From positions 6,754 through 70,753 of the IMG/VR virus record IMGVR_UViG_3300029288_000164: a stretch of DNA of 64,000 nucleotides; one strand, given 5' to 3'. Origin of the DNA: a virus (lineage: Duplodnaviria; Caudoviricetes). Under the pieces are notes generated by a model. That model saw only the letters and a program-made list of their open reading frames with translations, made no database searches and was not told the DNA's origin. Both the position numbers and the translations under genes were made by a program. This document shows, piece by piece, positions 6,660-54,412 of the stretch (position 1 is its first letter; every line of letters starts with the position of its first letter).

Positions 6660-7136
6660 ATGGCCATCAGACTCAGCCCGACAGACGTATTAACCGCAAC
6701 AGCCTATAGTGCTTCTGTAACGCACAACACAGCAACGGGGGCCTCGCACTCACTTGTACTTGACAACACGGTCAAGGCAACTTGTGTCGGCGTAGATCTT
6801 CTAAGTGGCGTAAGCGAGGTTAGCGCCGCACTTAGTGGCAGTGCTTCCAAGAAGTTTAAGCCAAACCGCGCTATCATCACATGCACGGCGCAGACCGGAG
6901 CCGGGGCGACCGGGGACAGCCACGTACAAATCGGGACGGCAACAGCGGGAGCCCAGGTTATGGCCAGCACCCATCTAACCGCACTTCAAACGGTTGGCCA
7001 GTGCTTCATTGTAGACCTCACGGGCGTTTTTGCAAATATCGCAGGAAATGCCACCCTGTTTGCTCAGTGCGTAACTCCAGACGGTACCGGCACCACAATG
7101 ACGGCTGATGTAGTTATTGAAGGTACAGAAGTCTAA
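6660..7136 (+). CDS. Small beta-rich virion-like protein (paralog 3 of 3)
   Basis: SPT...HSLV.D.TV...KKFKP.R...IAGNATL is shared with 5769..6626. Confidence 0.7.
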   Translation: MAIRLSPTDVLTATAYSASVTHNTATGASHSLVLDNTVKATCVGVDLLSGVSEVSAALSGSASKKFKPNRAIITCTAQTGAGATGDSHVQIGTATAGAQVMASTHLTALQTVGQCFIVDLTGVFANIAGNATLFAQCVTPDGTGTTMTADVVIEGTEV

Positions 7137-45649: not shown

Positions 45650-46582
45650 GTGCTTGAATACTGCAAAGGTATAAAAGCATTGTTCCATAAAACCGCAAAA
45701 GCTGAGATTCTAGGAATTTCCACGGCCCAAAAGACTTGGGAAAAAACCGCTAGTGGTAAATTTGCCAGTTTCTTTATGGACCAGGGAAACTCACTTAATG
45801 TTGAAGCTGCTTTAGATGCGGTAGCTGACACCTACAAAATCAGTAGAGATCCTTCCAACTACCTTTTTATTCCTGCCAGAGCTAACAGTGCTGATAGACC
45901 AAATGAAAACCAAGATGGCTGGAAAAGGGAAGAACTGCTAAGGTTCGACCCCATTATCGGGCGCAGGATTTACAGTACCTACACACTGAAGCCACACTTT
46001 GTAAATCACAACGCATCTCGTTATCAACTGGCTCGCGGTGTTTTGCTGGATGCTCACTACAATGATGCTAATCCGTTTACTAATGATGAGCGACGTGAAT
46101 CAATTAAGAAAGCAACCGGCAGAGATTTCGACAATGATGAATTCGTCGAAGTTCTAATTGCTGTAGATACGACTAAAGATCCCAATTTGGCAGAAGCATA
46201 TAAGAATGGTTCGGTTTACAGATTCTCTATGGGTTGTGACGTAGAGGCGACCGAATGCTCTGCGTGCGGTAATGTTGCGTCCACTGTTCTCCAGTTTTGC
46301 CCATGTGTTCGCGCAAAGCATTCGCGCAAAGCAGTAAAGTGGGCGGATGGCAGTATGCGCCCAGCATTTGAGTGGTGTGTTGGGACAAGATTCGCGGAAC
46401 TTAGCGCAGTTGATGATCCCGCTGATAAAGACGCTGAGATTCAAGAGGGCTTGCTAGGTCTTGTAAATAGCAAGGTATCTGCGCTTCAGATGAAACAGGA
46501 TTTGTCTAGTTTTGTGATTAAGAATGCCGGAAATATTCCAGCCAGTCTTGCGCCATTATTTGAGCGTTTGCTGACTGACTAA
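45650..46582 (+). CDS. Prohead (capsid maturation) protease
   Basis: PNENQD, FVNHN, FSMGC, Zn insertion CSAC...CPC, ELSAVDDPAD; upstream of scaffold and capsid genes. Confidence 0.85.
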   Translation: MLEYCKGIKALFHKTAKAEILGISTAQKTWEKTASGKFASFFMDQGNSLNVEAALDAVADTYKISRDPSNYLFIPARANSADRPNENQDGWKREELLRFDPIIGRRIYSTYTLKPHFVNHNASRYQLARGVLLDAHYNDANPFTNDERRESIKKATGRDFDNDEFVEVLIAVDTTKDPNLAEAYKNGSVYRFSMGCDVEATECSACGNVASTVLQFCPCVRAKHSRKAVKWADGSMRPAFEWCVGTRFAELSAVDDPADKDAEIQEGLLGLVNSKVSALQMKQDLSSFVIKNAGNIPASLAPLFERLLTD

Positions 46583-46592
46583 AGGAGCACTC

Positions 46593-48572
46593 ATGGACCC
46601 GAAACTTTCTCTATTCGAAACGGTTAAGAAGCTACATGAAGCGGGTACAGTGAAGCTCAGTACGTCAGAGCTTAATGAGATTTCCCGGCAAACGGCTGAT
46701 CTCATTAATCGTTCAATCAGGAACAAGAAAGCTGCCAAGATGCCAGAAGGTTTTGAAGATATTCTTGGGCAGTTGTCGGATAGCAATCCAGAGGAAGCTT
46801 ACAAGGTCGTATTGGAATTCCTCAAGGATAAGGGAATTGTGAAAGATACTGGGGAAGACAAAGAAATGCCCGGTATGGATATGGGTATGGACAAGCCGGA
46901 TATGGGGATGGATATGGGTAAGAAGCCTGACATGGGTATGGATAAGCCCATGAAGGACGAAATGTCTGGTATGGATAAGGATATGGATAAGGAGCCCAAG
47001 GAAGATAAGCCCGGTAAGGACAAGGAAGACAAAGATTTCCCCGGTAAGGATCTTCCCGGCAAGGATAAAGGCGGTTTCCCAGGCAAGGGCAAGGAAGACG
47101 GCAAGGGCAAGGGTCCATTTGGTGGCAAGGGCAAGGGCAAGGATGAGGAAAAAGGCGAATCCAAGGACCATGAAGAGTCTGAATCTCCAAAGGAAGAGAA
47201 GGAAGAGCACGAAGACAAAGGTGGAATGGAAAAGGAAATGCCTTTTGGTAAGGGTGCTCAGGCTGAAGTTGAACCAGATCTGAAGGACGAAGCTGACGAA
47301 GATAATGAAAAAGGTAAGGGCCGGTTGAAGGAACTCCAGAAGAAGGTTGAGGCTACTCCAGCTACTACTTCTGTTGAGTCGATGGGCATGATGGAAGAGA
47401 AGAAGGGTTCATACAAGGTTCTTATTACGGCAGAGCGGAATATTGTTGCCCAGCAGGTTGGCAAGGGGCCGCTATTCCATGCAATTCCAAGTCCTGAATA
47501 CAAGCGCAATCCAACAGCGCTGAAGGCTCTTGCTAACCAGATTATGGGGCTTCTAATGTATCAGGGACCAAAGGCTGCTGCGGCAAAATGCGGCGCTGTT
47601 CTACTTGCTGGTGTTGATGATGATGTTCAGACAACTGGCGATATGGAAATTGGCAAGAATACCAAGAGTGTTACGGATGACGCAACTACAGTAGATGTAG
47701 AAGGGGTTGCTGCTCCCGCAACTTCGACTCTTGATGATCCAGATAATGATACCCAGGAAGATCCAGAGAAGGTTAATCCAACAAATCGTGAAGGTATGCT
47801 GAGTGCTTATCGCGCTTCTAAGGGTGTTGCTAAGTATGAAGTAATCAAGCGGGCGGATACCTCGATTGATGATCCGGAAACAGTTAATGCAGAAAAGCCG
47901 GAAGAACCCCCAAAGAAGGTTACGGAAGGCGCTGAGAATGAGACTGAGGAAGATCCAGCAGAGCCCAAGACAGATACGACTGAGGGTGGCGAGGTTGACT
48001 TCCAGAGCGTTGAAGCCAGTTACCGTAAGCTCTATTCGTCTAGGGCTAAGAAGGCCACTGAAGAGGCTATTAACGCCTTTACAGACAAGTTTATGTCCAG
48101 CATTAGGATCGCATCTTCAAGGATGCGGCTAAACCAGGATGCTCACCCCTTCAAGATTGCTGCTGCCGATGTTCTTCTCAGCGATGAAGTAGAATTTACC
48201 GATGGTGATAAGTTCTGCCCAATGGATGCCAGAACAGCAAGTGAATTGATTGAACTTATTGCGTCAGAAGGTCATGACGCATTCGTTAATCATCTATTGG
48301 AGCGTTCAGCAGCACTTATGGAAAAGGACGCAAGCTATTTGAAGGATGTTGAGTCAGATCTGAAGACACTTGTTCCAGTATCTATTGATGCTAGTGGCAA
48401 GACAGCCGGTGTTAGGAAGAATTCAAGCCTTCGTGAGAGGGCAGTTGATGGTTCATTGTCTGAAACCAGGGCTCCAGTTCCGCGCCCTGAACGGAATAAC
48501 AAAGGAATAGAGATTCGCAATGCGTTTAGCGGGAACAAGCTAGGTCGTAGACTTAGTTCGCTACAAGGATAA
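46593..48572 (+). CDS. Scaffold-like head protein with low-complexity repeats
   Basis: M/D/K/G/P repeats and acidic ~16-aa repeats; lies between protease and capsid genes. Confidence 0.7.
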   Translation: MDPKLSLFETVKKLHEAGTVKLSTSELNEISRQTADLINRSIRNKKAAKMPEGFEDILGQLSDSNPEEAYKVVLEFLKDKGIVKDTGEDKEMPGMDMGMDKPDMGMDMGKKPDMGMDKPMKDEMSGMDKDMDKEPKEDKPGKDKEDKDFPGKDLPGKDKGGFPGKGKEDGKGKGPFGGKGKGKDEEKGESKDHEESESPKEEKEEHEDKGGMEKEMPFGKGAQAEVEPDLKDEADEDNEKGKGRLKELQKKVEATPATTSVESMGMMEEKKGSYKVLITAERNIVAQQVGKGPLFHAIPSPEYKRNPTALKALANQIMGLLMYQGPKAAAAKCGAVLLAGVDDDVQTTGDMEIGKNTKSVTDDATTVDVEGVAAPATSTLDDPDNDTQEDPEKVNPTNREGMLSAYRASKGVAKYEVIKRADTSIDDPETVNAEKPEEPPKKVTEGAENETEEDPAEPKTDTTEGGEVDFQSVEASYRKLYSSRAKKATEEAINAFTDKFMSSIRIASSRMRLNQDAHPFKIAAADVLLSDEVEFTDGDKFCPMDARTASELIELIASEGHDAFVNHLLERSAALMEKDASYLKDVESDLKTLVPVSIDASGKTAGVRKNSSLRERAVDGSLSETRAPVPRPERNNKGIEIRNAFSGNKLGRRLSSLQG

Positions 48573-49412: not shown

Positions 49413-50612
49413 ATGAGTACATCTAATCCATACCGGAAACTAGCCGCTCAGAAGCGCCCCGCAGCCCCACAGACTGCCAAGCGTTCAGGAGTAGAAGTAG
49501 CCCCGAAGACTCGCCTTGCTTCCAAGCGGGATGAGTCTCTGTTCGAAGCCAGTGGTAAATTTAACCCACAGAGTTATGACCACGGCAAGACCGCAGGCAC
49601 CAATCGCCGGATGTTCGACAAGAAGGGCGAACTCAATGCTGTAGACCGCAAGGATGCAATGGTTCAGATTAGTCACCTCCTCAATGAAGTGACCAAGAAG
49701 AACGCAGGCAACCTCCAGATGCGTAAGGCCACTGATGAGTCAAAGATCACCAAGGAAGCCCGTAGGGACATCCTTGCTGCGGCTCTCTCCGGTTCAACTG
49801 ATTCAGAGGGTTTCCGTGTTGTAGGGCAGGAACTAGCGCTTCCAATTAAGGCGATTCTTGATTACGAGGGTTTTGCTCGTAAGATTTATCGCGTCCGCAA
49901 GCTAGCTCAGGCTGAACTGTTCCGTATTCCACTCGACATTCGTTCGACTGCATGGGTAATTGGTCAGGATGGTCAGACTCCCGAGAGCCGCATTAAGACC
50001 AAGTGGATTACCCCGAGCGAATTCAAGATCACGTCGTTCCCGAGCGTTGATATCATGGACATATATCACTACAATTTTGATGTGCTTGATAGAGCACAGG
50101 ATACAGCACGTCAGGAAATCGAACTCGCGGAAGACAAGGCGGGTCTTGCTCTAATCGACCGCGCTTCCACAGTTGAGAATGACGCCGTTCTATTTGGTAC
50201 CCTCGGTGTTTCCGCTTTCGAAGACATCCGGTATCAGGTTGAGCGTCACCGGTTGATCGTAGAGAACTTCATGATCAATCGTCAGGAACTCAGTGACATC
50301 GTAAAGACCATGAGCACCCAGGTTGACATGGTTACCGAGCGCGAGTTGCTGTTGGCCGGTTACATCGGCACGTTCATGAACGCACAAATTCTCACCGCCG
50401 CAGGCACGGGCGTTGAGGAAGTAGTTCCCGCAGGCACCGTTTACGCGGTAACTGGCGCAGACTATATGGGCGAAATGGGCGTTCGTGTTGAGCTGTTCTC
50501 AGAGTCCTACAACAAATACGCCATGCAGGAAACCGTTAAGGGCTTCGCATTCTGTGAAATCCTTGGCTTTGGTATTCCGAATTCGCGTGCTTGTGCGAAG
50601 GGGACCAAATAG
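49413..50612 (+). CDS. Major capsid protein (HK97 fold)
   Basis: GQELALPIK...LDYEGFARKI, backbone helix FDVLDRAQDTARQEIELAED, C-terminal GFGIPN; size and position. Confidence 0.88.
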   Translation: MSTSNPYRKLAAQKRPAAPQTAKRSGVEVAPKTRLASKRDESLFEASGKFNPQSYDHGKTAGTNRRMFDKKGELNAVDRKDAMVQISHLLNEVTKKNAGNLQMRKATDESKITKEARRDILAAALSGSTDSEGFRVVGQELALPIKAILDYEGFARKIYRVRKLAQAELFRIPLDIRSTAWVIGQDGQTPESRIKTKWITPSEFKITSFPSVDIMDIYHYNFDVLDRAQDTARQEIELAEDKAGLALIDRASTVENDAVLFGTLGVSAFEDIRYQVERHRLIVENFMINRQELSDIVKTMSTQVDMVTERELLLAGYIGTFMNAQILTAAGTGVEEVVPAGTVYAVTGADYMGEMGVRVELFSESYNKYAMQETVKGFAFCEILGFGIPNSRACAKGTK

Positions 50613-50622
50613 TTGATGGTTG

Positions 50623-50673
50623 GCCGGTAGGTGGTTTAGGCCACCTACCGGCATTACCTACCTGAAAAGGTAG
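50623..50673 (+). promoter_or_regulatory. Double-hairpin RNA element after the capsid gene
   Basis: 12-bp stem GCCGGTAGGTGG/CCACCTACCGGC, then CTACCT-GAAA-AGGTAG; no U-tract. Confidence 0.7.
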
Positions 50674-50676
50674 AGC

Positions 50677-51510
50677 TTGGGCGAAAACCCTGTCGTGGAT
50701 GAAAAGCATACTAGAATTTCTGTTGTTGATGAACGCAATTGCTTTCTATCATACACACATCCCGCTAGGGCTCGTAAGTTATTAAAAGACGGAGAGGCCG
50801 AAGTGTTTTCGACTTCCCCTTTTACAATCCGTTTGAAACGGAGATCCCTGGAGGGTACAATGACTGCAATCACTAATTTCACTGAATATTTCAAGGAAGA
50901 GCGCGACATCTATGTTCAGAATAAGTCTGACCGGCTTATTTCGCTAGAATTCCAAGTGTCGGGAGATCGCAAGGAATCACACCGGTTGGCTAGGACACTT
51001 GATCCGGTCAATCTGACTCAGTACATTCCTTTCAACGCTATCAAGAATAGCACAGATCTCAGGAATCTGTCAAATCGCCAGCCACCGGCAATTGTTTTCC
51101 TTTCTGAAGAGGAATACAAGGCTTATTTCCAGCAGAAGGCGGCAGCGCACCAGACTACAATTGATGAGGAAATTTCTCGTTCCAATGAGAAGCATCGTTC
51201 AGTTGTAAACCGGACTGCCTTCAAGCCGATGGAAAAGATGACGTTGGCAGAAGCCGAGAAGGAACTGACCAAGCCTACGCCCCTGGAAGAGCAACTAACT
51301 CCTCGTGTAGTTGGGCTATGCTCCAAGGTTGGTGCGGATATTAAGGAAGCCGAGATGCTTCCTGCCCGCGATTTCATTGAGGAGCTAGAAGCTATCGAAA
51401 AGACGCTAACTCCTGCCGATCTTGAATTCATTCTAGTTAATGGTTATCACAAATCGGTCAAAAAGTGGGCACAAAAGCGTCTTGAGGGCGGTTCTGCTAA
51501 AGAAGAATAA
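50677..51510 (+). CDS. PLMP/RRXRR-domain fusion to a hypothetical head-module protein
   Basis: ISVVDE...THPARARKLLKDGEAEV....PFTIRLK matches the IscB N-terminal domain; in-frame internal ATG 50860 has a GGAGGG RBS. Confidence 0.75.
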   Translation: MGENPVVDEKHTRISVVDERNCFLSYTHPARARKLLKDGEAEVFSTSPFTIRLKRRSLEGTMTAITNFTEYFKEERDIYVQNKSDRLISLEFQVSGDRKESHRLARTLDPVNLTQYIPFNAIKNSTDLRNLSNRQPPAIVFLSEEEYKAYFQQKAAAHQTTIDEEISRSNEKHRSVVNRTAFKPMEKMTLAEAEKELTKPTPLEEQLTPRVVGLCSKVGADIKEAEMLPARDFIEELEAIEKTLTPADLEFILVNGYHKSVKKWAQKRLEGGSAKEE

Positions 51511-51590
51511 CCCACAATAAAGTCCCACAGTTTAGTCTTCCAAACAATTTTATCGTACAATGCTCATATAGTTAGCAAAGGCCAAAAACC

Positions 51591-52049
51591 ATGCAATATT
51601 CTGAAAAAGTTCACGAAATCTTCATTATTGGAAAAGTAGGCGCATCTACTAAATTATGGTTTCAACCCAGTGGCGAACCAATTGAAAATTTCACTGTTGC
51701 CGTTAATTCCAAAGGTGTCCCAATGCCTGGTGGTTTCACCATTGATTGGGAAATTCTATATGGGGGTAATTGGTTAACGGGTGTGCCATATTCAGACACT
51801 GCTACACATTCTGGTGGTCGCGTAATTTCCTCTGGCTCTTTTGCTCTTGGTTTAGAAGTGGCTGAAATCATCTATAACGGCCCACTAATTCTTCCGACAA
51901 ATCGCCGTAAAACTGTTTACAAATCTGACGGATCTCCCAACAAAACTGGTTGGGGCGGCTTCCCATTACTAGCCAGATTCACCAATAACGACATTGACGA
52001 CGTAACTTTAGTGGTAACTTTCATTACAAAATCTTTGTCCCTTTATTAG
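51591..52049 (+). CDS. Virion-like protein (tandem paralog)
   Basis: MQY..., PSGEP, YGG, D..TH.GG and GGFP are shared with the next gene; both are 152 aa. Confidence 0.65.
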   Translation: MQYSEKVHEIFIIGKVGASTKLWFQPSGEPIENFTVAVNSKGVPMPGGFTIDWEILYGGNWLTGVPYSDTATHSGGRVISSGSFALGLEVAEIIYNGPLILPTNRRKTVYKSDGSPNKTGWGGFPLLARFTNNDIDDVTLVVTFITKSLSLY

Positions 52050-52135: not shown

Positions 52136-52594
52136 ATGCAATATATCGAAACTACGAAAGAAGTGACAATGACGGCTGCTGGCGGATTAGCGCCCGTAGT
52201 TCGTGTATGGATGGACCCCAGTGGCGAACCTTTCCGGGATATTAATATTTCAGTTAGCTCATCCGGTGGAGCTTTGCCTGCTGGTGGAGTTACCTGGGCT
52301 GTATATTATGGAGGTGCATTTACTGGCCCACTTTATGTAGATACTTCAACACATACCGGTGGAATTCTTCAAGCAACTAACCTTTTTGCTGGTGCTGCTG
52401 AAGTTGCTACAGTAATTCACACAGATACCGACATTTTCCCTTCCAATCTTCGCCAAAGAAATATCCATGTAGAAACTGCCCATACTCTCAAGGGCTATGG
52501 CGGATTTCCTATTGTTCTCGAATTGACAAATAATGCTGCTGTTGCTGTTACTCTAATTGCATCTCTGGTTGCTCGTACAGTTTCAATTCCATAA
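52136..52594 (+). CDS. Virion-like protein (tandem paralog)
   Basis: Same motifs as 51591..52049; AAGGAGG RBS. Confidence 0.65.
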   Translation: MQYIETTKEVTMTAAGGLAPVVRVWMDPSGEPFRDINISVSSSGGALPAGGVTWAVYYGGAFTGPLYVDTSTHTGGILQATNLFAGAAEVATVIHTDTDIFPSNLRQRNIHVETAHTLKGYGGFPIVLELTNNAAVAVTLIASLVARTVSIP

Positions 52595-53203: not shown

Positions 53204-54412
53204 TTGATGGCTAAATTATACAGAACTTGTAAGGTAAAGTTGGGGAAATCTCCTAAACAGGAGAAAAAGCTCAAAACTACTTTGGAGTTATTACGGCAGT
53301 TATATAATGCTGCTTTGCAACAGCGGCGCGAAGCTTGGGTGAAACAGCACGTATCCTTAACGGAATATGATCAACATGCAGAGCTGACTAAGGTGAGAGC
53401 AGACGATATAGAGTTTAGAAACATTCCCGTTGAGACTGCGAGACTTACATCATTGCATCGACTTGCCTTAGCTTTTCAGAAGTTTTTTAATAGATTGAAA
53501 CGTGGGGAGAAGCCGGGGTATCCTAGATATAAAGGGGTTGATCGGTTTAATACTTTATTTTATGGTCGAACTGGCTGGAAGATAGATGGAAAAAAACTTA
53601 TTTTGGTTAATGGTAAAGACCCTATAGTGCTAAGAATGAGAAATAGTATTTATTTAGCGGGTAAAATAGTTGGGTTTAAGTTAGTAGAGCGGGCAGGGCG
53701 TTGGTGGGCGCATTTTCAAATTGAGATGGGGGATATTCCGGAAAAAGGGGAAGCAAAAAATAGTGTTGGTATTGATGTTGGTATTAAAACTTTTGCAACA
53801 TTGTCAGATGGATCTGAGGTTGAGCATCCCCATTTTCTAGTTAACGCTTCTGCCAAACTTAAAGAGGGGCAGAGAAATTTGTCTAGAAAGACAAAAGGCT
53901 CAAATAATAGGAAGAAGGCACAGGAACGTCTCGCTCGATTAAATGAGAATATAGTAAATCAACGAAAGAACTTTATAAATCAGGTTGTTTCGGATTTAGT
54001 AAAAACGTATGACGGTTTTGTAGTGGAGGCGCTGGATATAAGAAGGATGATGTCTACGAATAGCGCTCCCTCAGGTTTGGGTAAGTTTGGTCTTCCCGGT
54101 TTAAAGAGGGGGATTATAGATTCGTCTTGGGGTGCATTTGCTCTTCATCTGGTCAGTAAAGCGGAAGAAGCTGGCTGTCCGGTTGTTTGCGTAAATCCTA
54201 GAGGAACTTCACAGATGTGTTCCGGATGCGGGACAACAGTAAAGAAAGATCTTGGTTCTAGAATGCATGATTGCCCTGTTTGTGGTTTGTTGCTAGACAG
54301 GGATTTAAATGCGGCCAAGAATATTTTTGCTTTAGGAAAAAACAACCTGGGGCACAGGTTGACGACTGATAGTACAGCTTTTAGCTGTGCCGTTGGCGCG
54401 GAGGCTTTTTGA
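53204..54412 (+). mobile_element. tnpB: IS200/IS605-family TnpB (copy 2)
   Basis: LYNAALQQRR, GIDVG, VVEAL, CSGC...CPVC, DRDLNAAKNI. Confidence 0.93.

Follow-up and report, generated by a model that had tools for sequence, protein, structure and literature searches.

A nuclease-free IscB-type PLMP domain and omegaRNA-like hairpins at the start of a head-region gene in large tailed phages

Introduction

The locus described here raises the question of why a phage gene directly after the major capsid gene should begin with the PLMP domain of the IscB and IsrB nucleases, the proteins of OMEGA systems (obligate mobile element-guided activity). The gene lies in a 64,000-nucleotide stretch (the window; positions 6,754 to 70,753 of IMG/VR record IMGVR_UViG_3300029288_000164), and the record itself is 70.7 kb long, about 40% complete and derived from an uncultured phage. 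Its open reading frame (ORF) encodes PLMP, a linker and a conserved C-terminal domain (CTD), and three hairpins (HP1, HP2 and HP3) stand in its leader (Table 1). The N-terminal module proved to be a genuine IscB/IsrB-type PLMP domain without a nuclease, and comparison with related phages and with IscB loci makes it probable that large tailed phages domesticated one part of an OMEGA system, PLMP together with the 3'-terminal hairpins of the omegaRNA, as a 5' module on a head-region gene.

IscB is a transposon nuclease ancestral to Cas9. In IsrB, PLMP binds the tandem 3'-terminal stem-loops SL7 and SL8, which contain the Shine-Dalgarno (SD) sequence of the nuclease gene; PLMP is in contact with the SD, and the authors proposed that it has a role in expression (Hirano et al., PMC9581776). 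The terminal hairpins of the IscB RNA are recognised by PLMP as well (Kato et al., PMC9640706). An original prediction, made from the letters of the window, had proposed a PLMP domain fused to a phage protein behind a switch-like RNA leader that tunes read-through or translation, and the sequence features that it named (the frame, GGAGGG, the internal ATG, HP1 and HP2) were all recovered, position for position.

Results

Residues 15–57 of the 277-aa frame match the Pfam family RRXRR (PF14239) with 38.1 bits and E = 1.9e-9, the Pfam cut-off being 25 bits, and the match is confined to profile positions 2–44 of 174. At the place of the IscB PLMP motif the phage protein reads FLSY, the replacement that had been proposed; the family reads (F/I)LSY, and its basal members read L-x-P-(C/T/S)-x-P-A-R-A-R, near the IscB consensus. 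An AlphaFold (AF2) model was built on 47 homologues, with a predicted local distance difference test (pLDDT) score of 89. Its PLMP region (pLDDT 88–95) adopts a beta-beta-alpha-beta-beta arrangement. Comparison (VIA) of the predicted domain with residues 1–50 of IscB and IsrB gave Z values of 6.5–8.0 and root-mean-square deviations (rmsd) of 1.5–2.2 Å over 47–49 aa. The best structural matches, among them 9K30 (Z 8.0, rmsd 1.9 Å over 49 residues, 43% identity) and also 9K2Z, 9NVU, 8DMB and 9LIQ, were without exception PLMP domains from IscB or IsrB. When a profile made from 38 phage PLMP sequences was searched against the PDB, it likewise retrieved IscB/IsrB chains only, with E = 5.7e-14 for TbaIscB.

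No part of a nuclease was found beyond this domain. RuvC and the RRXRR bridge helix are lacking after PLMP, no DPG/RuvC-I motif follows the 61-aa extension, and the 216-aa C-terminal part has neither a RuvC-like fold nor a Pfam match. HNH has no Pfam match in the ORF, and a match to phrog_2214, annotated 'HNH endonuclease', is restricted to positions 6–49 of that family, which correspond to the PLMP part. The assignment to PLMP/RRXRR thus held in a profile search and in fold comparison, as did the proposed absence of RuvC-I and HNH: the Pfam match does not extend past profile position 44, and the C-terminal part contains no RuvC or HNH fold.

The protein collection contained 47 homologues of the PLMP-CTD protein, and 88 related loci were identified in viral and metagenome contigs, some of them in complete genomes of 158–212 kb (loci are cited below by L numbers, proteins by P numbers and complete genomes by G numbers). 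In about 70 loci the frame runs from PLMP into the downstream protein uninterrupted by a stop, and these loci span 27–98% identity. For the 13 pairs in which the ratio of nonsynonymous to synonymous substitution rates (dN/dS) of PLMP codons could be computed, it was 0.03–0.24. A sister clade (L031, L077–L090) lacks PLMP entirely. These comparisons indicate that PLMP is kept in frame under purifying selection and is not a decaying remnant, the outcome that had been named as fatal to the original prediction.

In the leader, HP2 and HP3 form a tandem pair, and the 3' arm of HP2 together with GAG makes an SD-like stretch. The leader fold has a free energy of −43.7 kcal/mol, below all 200 shuffles (z = −4.0), and pair probabilities in the window are 0.90–1.0 for HP1 and about 0.76 for HP3. 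Thirteen leaders were aligned with MAFFT, and the alignment was left unfitted. On this alignment 96.6% of the HP2 and HP3 cells were paired, compared with 38–52% when the partners were slid; 8 of 9 pairs showed compensatory changes, including all 4 pairs of the HP3 helix, and 0 of 500 shuffles reached the observed values. A covariance model trained on the phage leader hairpins (R1) detected a single site in each locus, in every case ahead of the PLMP ORF; in the window this was 50651–50696 alone. HP2 and HP3 are absent from the PLMP-less clade and occur only with PLMP.

HP1 behaves differently. Its sequence varies freely across relatives, and the PLMP-less clade, too, has a long hairpin of similar kind after its capsid gene; HP1 is a generic post-capsid hairpin outside the PLMP module. 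HP1 was also considered as an intrinsic terminator and rejected: no T tract is present (CATTACC follows), and a scan of 50300–51700 gave 0 terminator-like sites. The proposed tuning of read-through finds no support in these results or in the comparable hairpin of the PLMP-less phages. Among relatives, PLMP mostly keeps its in-frame place after the capsid gene and HP2/HP3 covary, as anticipated, whereas the sequence of HP1 is not conserved.

The leader was compared with the upstream regions of 80 bacterial and 12 phage-borne IscB loci. The last hairpin before the IscB ORF reads (A/G)UUACC-stem-GNRA-stem-GAG(G), and the segment containing HP2 has the same UUACC-stem-GNRA-like loop-stem-GAG form, 5' of the PLMP ORF and overlapping the SD. 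For example, the IscB locus L171 reads GTTACCTAC-GAAA-GTAGAGGCT and the window ATTACCTACCT-GAAA-AGGTAGAGCT. Near-identical hairpins are present at phage-borne IscBs. The phage alignment had yielded a motif, 'AC + hairpin + AG', prior to any inspection of the IscB loci. Searched over 130 nt upstream, it preceded 28 of the 48 PLMP ORFs of phages and 44 of 72 IscB ORFs, compared with 4–5% of background tiles. In the converse direction, a model made from IscB omegaRNA hairpins only (R2) was run over both strands of the window and ranked 50652–50678 first, with a weak score (12.4 bits, E = 0.48). Of the 4 best R2 matches in 270 kb of phage loci, 3 were leader sites (L030, E = 0.002; L019; L036). 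Rfam scans of the region, of the leader alone and of the long-type leader described below returned chance-level matches only, with no HEARO and no match at E <= 10. A large omegaRNA (200–400 nt with a 5' guide) is not present, as only 65–83 nt lie between the capsid stop and the start codon. With moderate to good confidence, we regard the hairpins as derived from the 3' end of an omegaRNA.

The frame has two candidate starts for a long form and a further start inside it. The gene-caller product P0001 (271 aa) begins at GTG 50695, which sits 4 nt past HP3, a placement comparable to that of the relatives' second-site starts (see below), and the GTG-GAT is retained in L036 and L037. The internal ATG, which encodes a Met at the domain boundary, was found in 46 of 46 distinct PLMP-bearing loci. 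An SD (GGAG, GAGG or AGGA) stands before it in 42 of these 46, whereas control codons taken from the same genes have one in 14.6%. Members of the PLMP-less clade use the same ATG as their start codon, 13 of 14 with the SD. An ancestral ribosome-binding site and start have therefore been kept inside the fused frame, and public gene calls include both the 271-aa and the 216-aa forms. This retention is best explained by continued use, and a nested short isoform is very likely; of the two isoforms envisaged at the outset, both are thus likely to be made.

Five complete relatives were searched with R1. The primary site was found in 5 of 5, and in 3 of 5 (L188, L190 and L192, from G003, G004 and G002) a second site lies 11–14 kb downstream, with E = 0.0024, 0.37 and 0.6 per genome. 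The second sites end 0–3 nt before the start codon of orthologous genes that encode 177–190-aa proteins with acidic tails. These genes follow two tail-tube-like paralogues, have no Pfam or PHROG match, and are themselves followed by an overlapping alternate-frame ORF; because this arrangement is typical of tail-assembly chaperones, we call them tail-assembly-chaperone-like.

Several variants of the locus were seen among the relatives. Two tandem PLMP copies stand on the phage protein in three loci (L032–L034) and in P0057. In L069 (1501–1771) a stop splits PLMP off as a free 66-aa ORF, and the downstream gene has its own SD and ATG; in L071 PLMP is broken by a deletion and a frameshift. An insertion of about 530 nt separates the capsid and PLMP genes in L029 (1095–1640) and includes a stretch ending ...GGTTCGAATCC...CCACCA, which resembles the 3' half of a tRNA. 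In another subclade the PLMP gene is preceded by a second leader type of about 190 nt, which contains five or six hairpins and in which 27 pairs covary (L012, L019–L024, L055–L062 and L072; for example L020:3790–3979). An invariant loop UUCCACC in its first hairpin could pair with an invariant AAGGUGG by a later hairpin; L062 has changes on both sides (CAACC / GGUUG), and the pairing may form a nexus-like pseudoknot.

Beyond this family, the PLMP profile matched 2874 representative proteins at E <= 0.001, among them many PLMP-only proteins of 52–130 aa, some of which may be fragments. Unrelated small proteins made of PLMP repeats alone were also noted (P0054, three copies; P0064, two copies). 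Free-standing small PLMP proteins include P0048, P0049 and P0054, and some of these may likewise be fragments.

The C-terminal protein matches phrog_17686 in 30 of 47 family members. It has no informative Pfam or PHROG match, and in Atlas it falls in unnamed viral clusters only. In BFVD its structural relatives are about 210 aa long, uncharacterised, and come from the jumbo phages PaBG, Motura, BcepSaruman and phiRSL1. No clear fold emerged from a search against the PDB, in which the middle domain reached Z <= 5.2 and the matches of the C-terminus were helical and non-specific. Residues 76–120 of the short isoform (51085–51219) form a beta-alpha-alpha stretch that weakly resembles ribbon-helix-helix DNA-binding domains (many such rows at Z 3.5–4.7), which we take as a lead only. 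Sigma-70-like hexamers (TTGAAA-17-TACAAT, 10/12) at 50833–50861 (+) end at the internal ATG, and the regional count of such sites is not above shuffle expectation.

The gene belongs to a head module that contains a maturation protease, a scaffold-like protein, a 263-aa protein listed between the latter and the major capsid protein, and the capsid gene itself, whose C-terminal motif is common to most relatives. No family match was found for the scaffold-like protein. The PLMP gene is present in a single copy in the 70.7-kb record, without the multicopy pattern of a mobile IS200/IS605 insertion sequence (IS), and its position after the capsid gene is fixed in most relatives. Directly after it stand two adjoining 152-aa paralogues with no PHROG or Pfam match, and an intact-looking TnpB lies further on within the virion gene block. 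Sheath genes form the end of the record.

Table 1 Features of the PLMP locus and of the surrounding head module (window coordinates).
Feature	Position	Strand	Remarks
Maturation protease	45650-46582		head module
659-aa protein, scaffold-like	46593-48572	+	between protease and capsid genes; long acidic low-complexity DMGM/KD-rich repeats
Major capsid protein gene	49413-50612	+	phrog_2522 major head protein, E = 2.3e-53; ends ...CAKGTK and stop
HP1	50623-50652	+	13 bp (12 Watson-Crick and one G-U), G+C-rich, after capsid stop
HP2 with flanks	50653-50675	+	AUUAC-C UACCU-GAAA-AGGUA G-AG; stem 50658-50663 / 50668-50673, 6 bp, GAAA loop
HP3	50679-50690	+	GGG-CGAAAA-CCC; second hairpin of tandem pair; absent from the original prediction
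Long-isoform candidate starts	50677-50697	+	in-frame TTG 50677 and GTG 50695
Open frame, long isoform (PLMP-linker-CTD)	50677-51510	+	277 aa from TTG 50677, 271 aa from GTG 50695
PLMP coding region	50713-50847	+	RISVV...RLKRRS; beta-beta-alpha-beta-beta
Internal SD and start	50850-50855; 50860-50862	+	GGAGGG; ATG; short-isoform start
Conserved C-terminal protein, short isoform	50860-51510	+	216 aa; phrog_17686 (annotated function unknown)
152-aa paralogues	51591-52049; 52136-52594	+	adjoining, directly after PLMP gene
TnpB	53204-54412	+	OrfB_IS605, Cas12f1-like TNB and helix-turn-helix

Discussion

The reading that we consider probable is that the PLMP domain and the tandem hairpins were taken over together and that binding of the one to the other limits translation. 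In the mechanism proposed, the long form would start just past the tandem hairpins (at GTG 50695 or TTG 50677) and carry PLMP, and the short form would start at the ancestral SD and ATG 50860. PLMP of the long form would bind HP2 and HP3, in or next to which lie that form's own SD and start, and this binding would limit the form's own translation. In relatives, the long form would also limit the tail-assembly-chaperone-like gene through the second hairpin copy at its start codon. A wider proposal is tentative, and we put its chance at somewhat under even: the long PLMP isoform would be a trans-acting repressor with omegaRNA-derived operators before its own gene and the tail-assembly-chaperone gene, a head product would in this way meter the synthesis of tail-assembly proteins, and the native contact between IscB PLMP and its hairpin would itself be a form of expression control.

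Several observations weigh against the proposed binding and repression. FLSY has taken the place of the PLMP motif, which in IscB touches both RuvC and the RNA. The match of R2 to the window is weak when taken alone, and the phage-trained R1 has no significant match at the IscB loci, being too specific to type-A sequence. Many type-A relatives have the long-form ATG about 25 nt past HP3, where occlusion would be indirect. About 40% of the PLMP leaders are without the strict motif within 130 nt, and the long-leader type has the motif further upstream. Since PLMP is a separate small ORF in L069, the fusion is not essential. Finally, R1 found no second site in the window, which contains no homologue of the target gene and comes from a record ending in sheath genes.

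Nested long and short forms of one protein are a common route to minor virion variants. PLMP might accordingly be a structural adaptor, or one that binds protein or DNA, on a minority of head-protein copies, for example at a special vertex or on packaged DNA, with the hairpins as independent cis elements that affect mRNA stability, processing or translation efficiency and are not bound by PLMP. The location of the gene within the head module, next to the protease, scaffold-like protein and capsid genes, agrees with such a role, as do the nested forms, the extensive contacts of IsrB PLMP with RuvC and TI, and the weak ribbon-helix-helix-like stretch in the C-terminal part. We nevertheless regard an adaptor as rather unlikely, since HP2 and HP3 are found only where PLMP is and resemble the RNA element bound by IscB PLMP, the second copy of the hairpins, which in relatives precedes a gene without PLMP, fits an RNA binder acting in trans, and PLMP is a free-standing ORF in L069. 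The linked, conserved hairpin site also argues for a specific target, and hence against PLMP acting on the ribosome, or more generally on initiation, without a specific RNA site, in the manner of the N-terminal domain of IF3. The PLMP fold does resemble that domain (PMC9581776), and Foldseek gave weak matches to 6o6d and 6neq, but the matches to IscB/IsrB PLMP are far stronger in both sequence and fold, and we give a general initiation factor very little credence.

In the switch that had originally been envisaged, CCUACC, common to HP1 and HP2, would allow alternative pairings that uncover or mask the long form's RBS independently of any protein. The complementarities are real in the window, but the mutually exclusive folds built on them did not stand up: the enforced alternatives reach −25.8 and −24.5 kcal/mol, compared with −41.6 kcal/mol for the fold with HP1, HP2 and HP3, a cost of 16–17 kcal/mol, and their pair probability is about 0. 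HP1 moreover forms first as the RNA is transcribed, L036 and L037 as nearest relatives have a different HP1 with no complementarity to HP2, and HP1 varies freely while HP2 and HP3 covary. With the pairing both costly and not conserved, the fold switch was rejected as highly improbable. Least credible of all is that PLMP is the functionless remnant of a decaying IscB insertion, fused in frame by chance. Such phages do carry OMEGA elements (the TnpB of the window, and full IscBs in other phage contigs), and PLMP is broken in L071. Against this stand the roughly 70 loci without stops over a wide range of identity, the low dN/dS, the covarying hairpins, and the tandem duplications of PLMP in L032–L034 and P0057.

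If the proposed pairing of PLMP with HP2/HP3 is correct, this would be the first described exaptation of IscB/IsrB PLMP alone with its cognate hairpin and no nuclease, and PLMP and the terminal hairpin would constitute a separable protein-RNA module. A search of the literature found no paper on nuclease-free (PLMP-only) or phage PLMP proteins, its coverage being incomplete and not proof of absence. The module may be widespread, because the profile search returned many other nuclease-free PLMP proteins with single or tandem domains. It would bear on the evolution of OMEGA systems and Cas9, in particular on the purpose of PLMP and on why Cas9 lost it; on the wider, tentative proposal above, a piece of the ribonucleoprotein of the Cas9 ancestor would have been re-used as a phage late-gene regulon. 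With about 45 aa and about 40 nt, it would be a very small natural RNA-protein pair and is directly testable.

Among known systems, IscB and IsrB (9K30, 9K2Z, 9NVU, 8DMB, 7XHT) share with the phage protein the same PLMP domain, by sequence and predicted fold, and IscB shares the UUACC-stem-GNRA-stem-GAG hairpin or hairpins immediately 5' of the PLMP ORF, overlapping the Shine-Dalgarno sequence. Unlike them, the phage protein is without RuvC, bridge helix, HNH and TI, and has neither a guide nor a large omegaRNA scaffold; its PLMP is fused to an unrelated phage protein and is conserved vertically in the lineage, not carried by a mobile IS. IshB (PLMP and HNH), other reduced OMEGA proteins and TldR, a nuclease-dead TnpB, are likewise cases of exaptation or reduction to a non-cutting function. 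IshB retains HNH, and TldRs retain the RNA-guided DNA-binding core and the guide, whereas the phages keep only a domain of about 45 aa, of the kind that binds an RNA hairpin, and the hairpin.

The proposed logic, in which a protein bound to a hairpin at or beside an RBS limits the translation of its own gene and of one more, would be the same as that of the MS2 coat protein and the replicase hairpin, of T4 RegA and gp32, and of ribosomal-protein autoregulation. Neither the protein fold nor the RNA of those operators is related to the phage PLMP module, for which binding and repression are predicted only. The arrangement of starts has parallels in lambda C/Nu3, T7 gene 4A/4B and phiX174 A/A*, in which an in-frame internal SD and ATG give a shorter product that shares the C-terminus; unlike in those nested genes, the additional N-terminal part of the phage protein is an acquired foreign domain of RNA-binding type.

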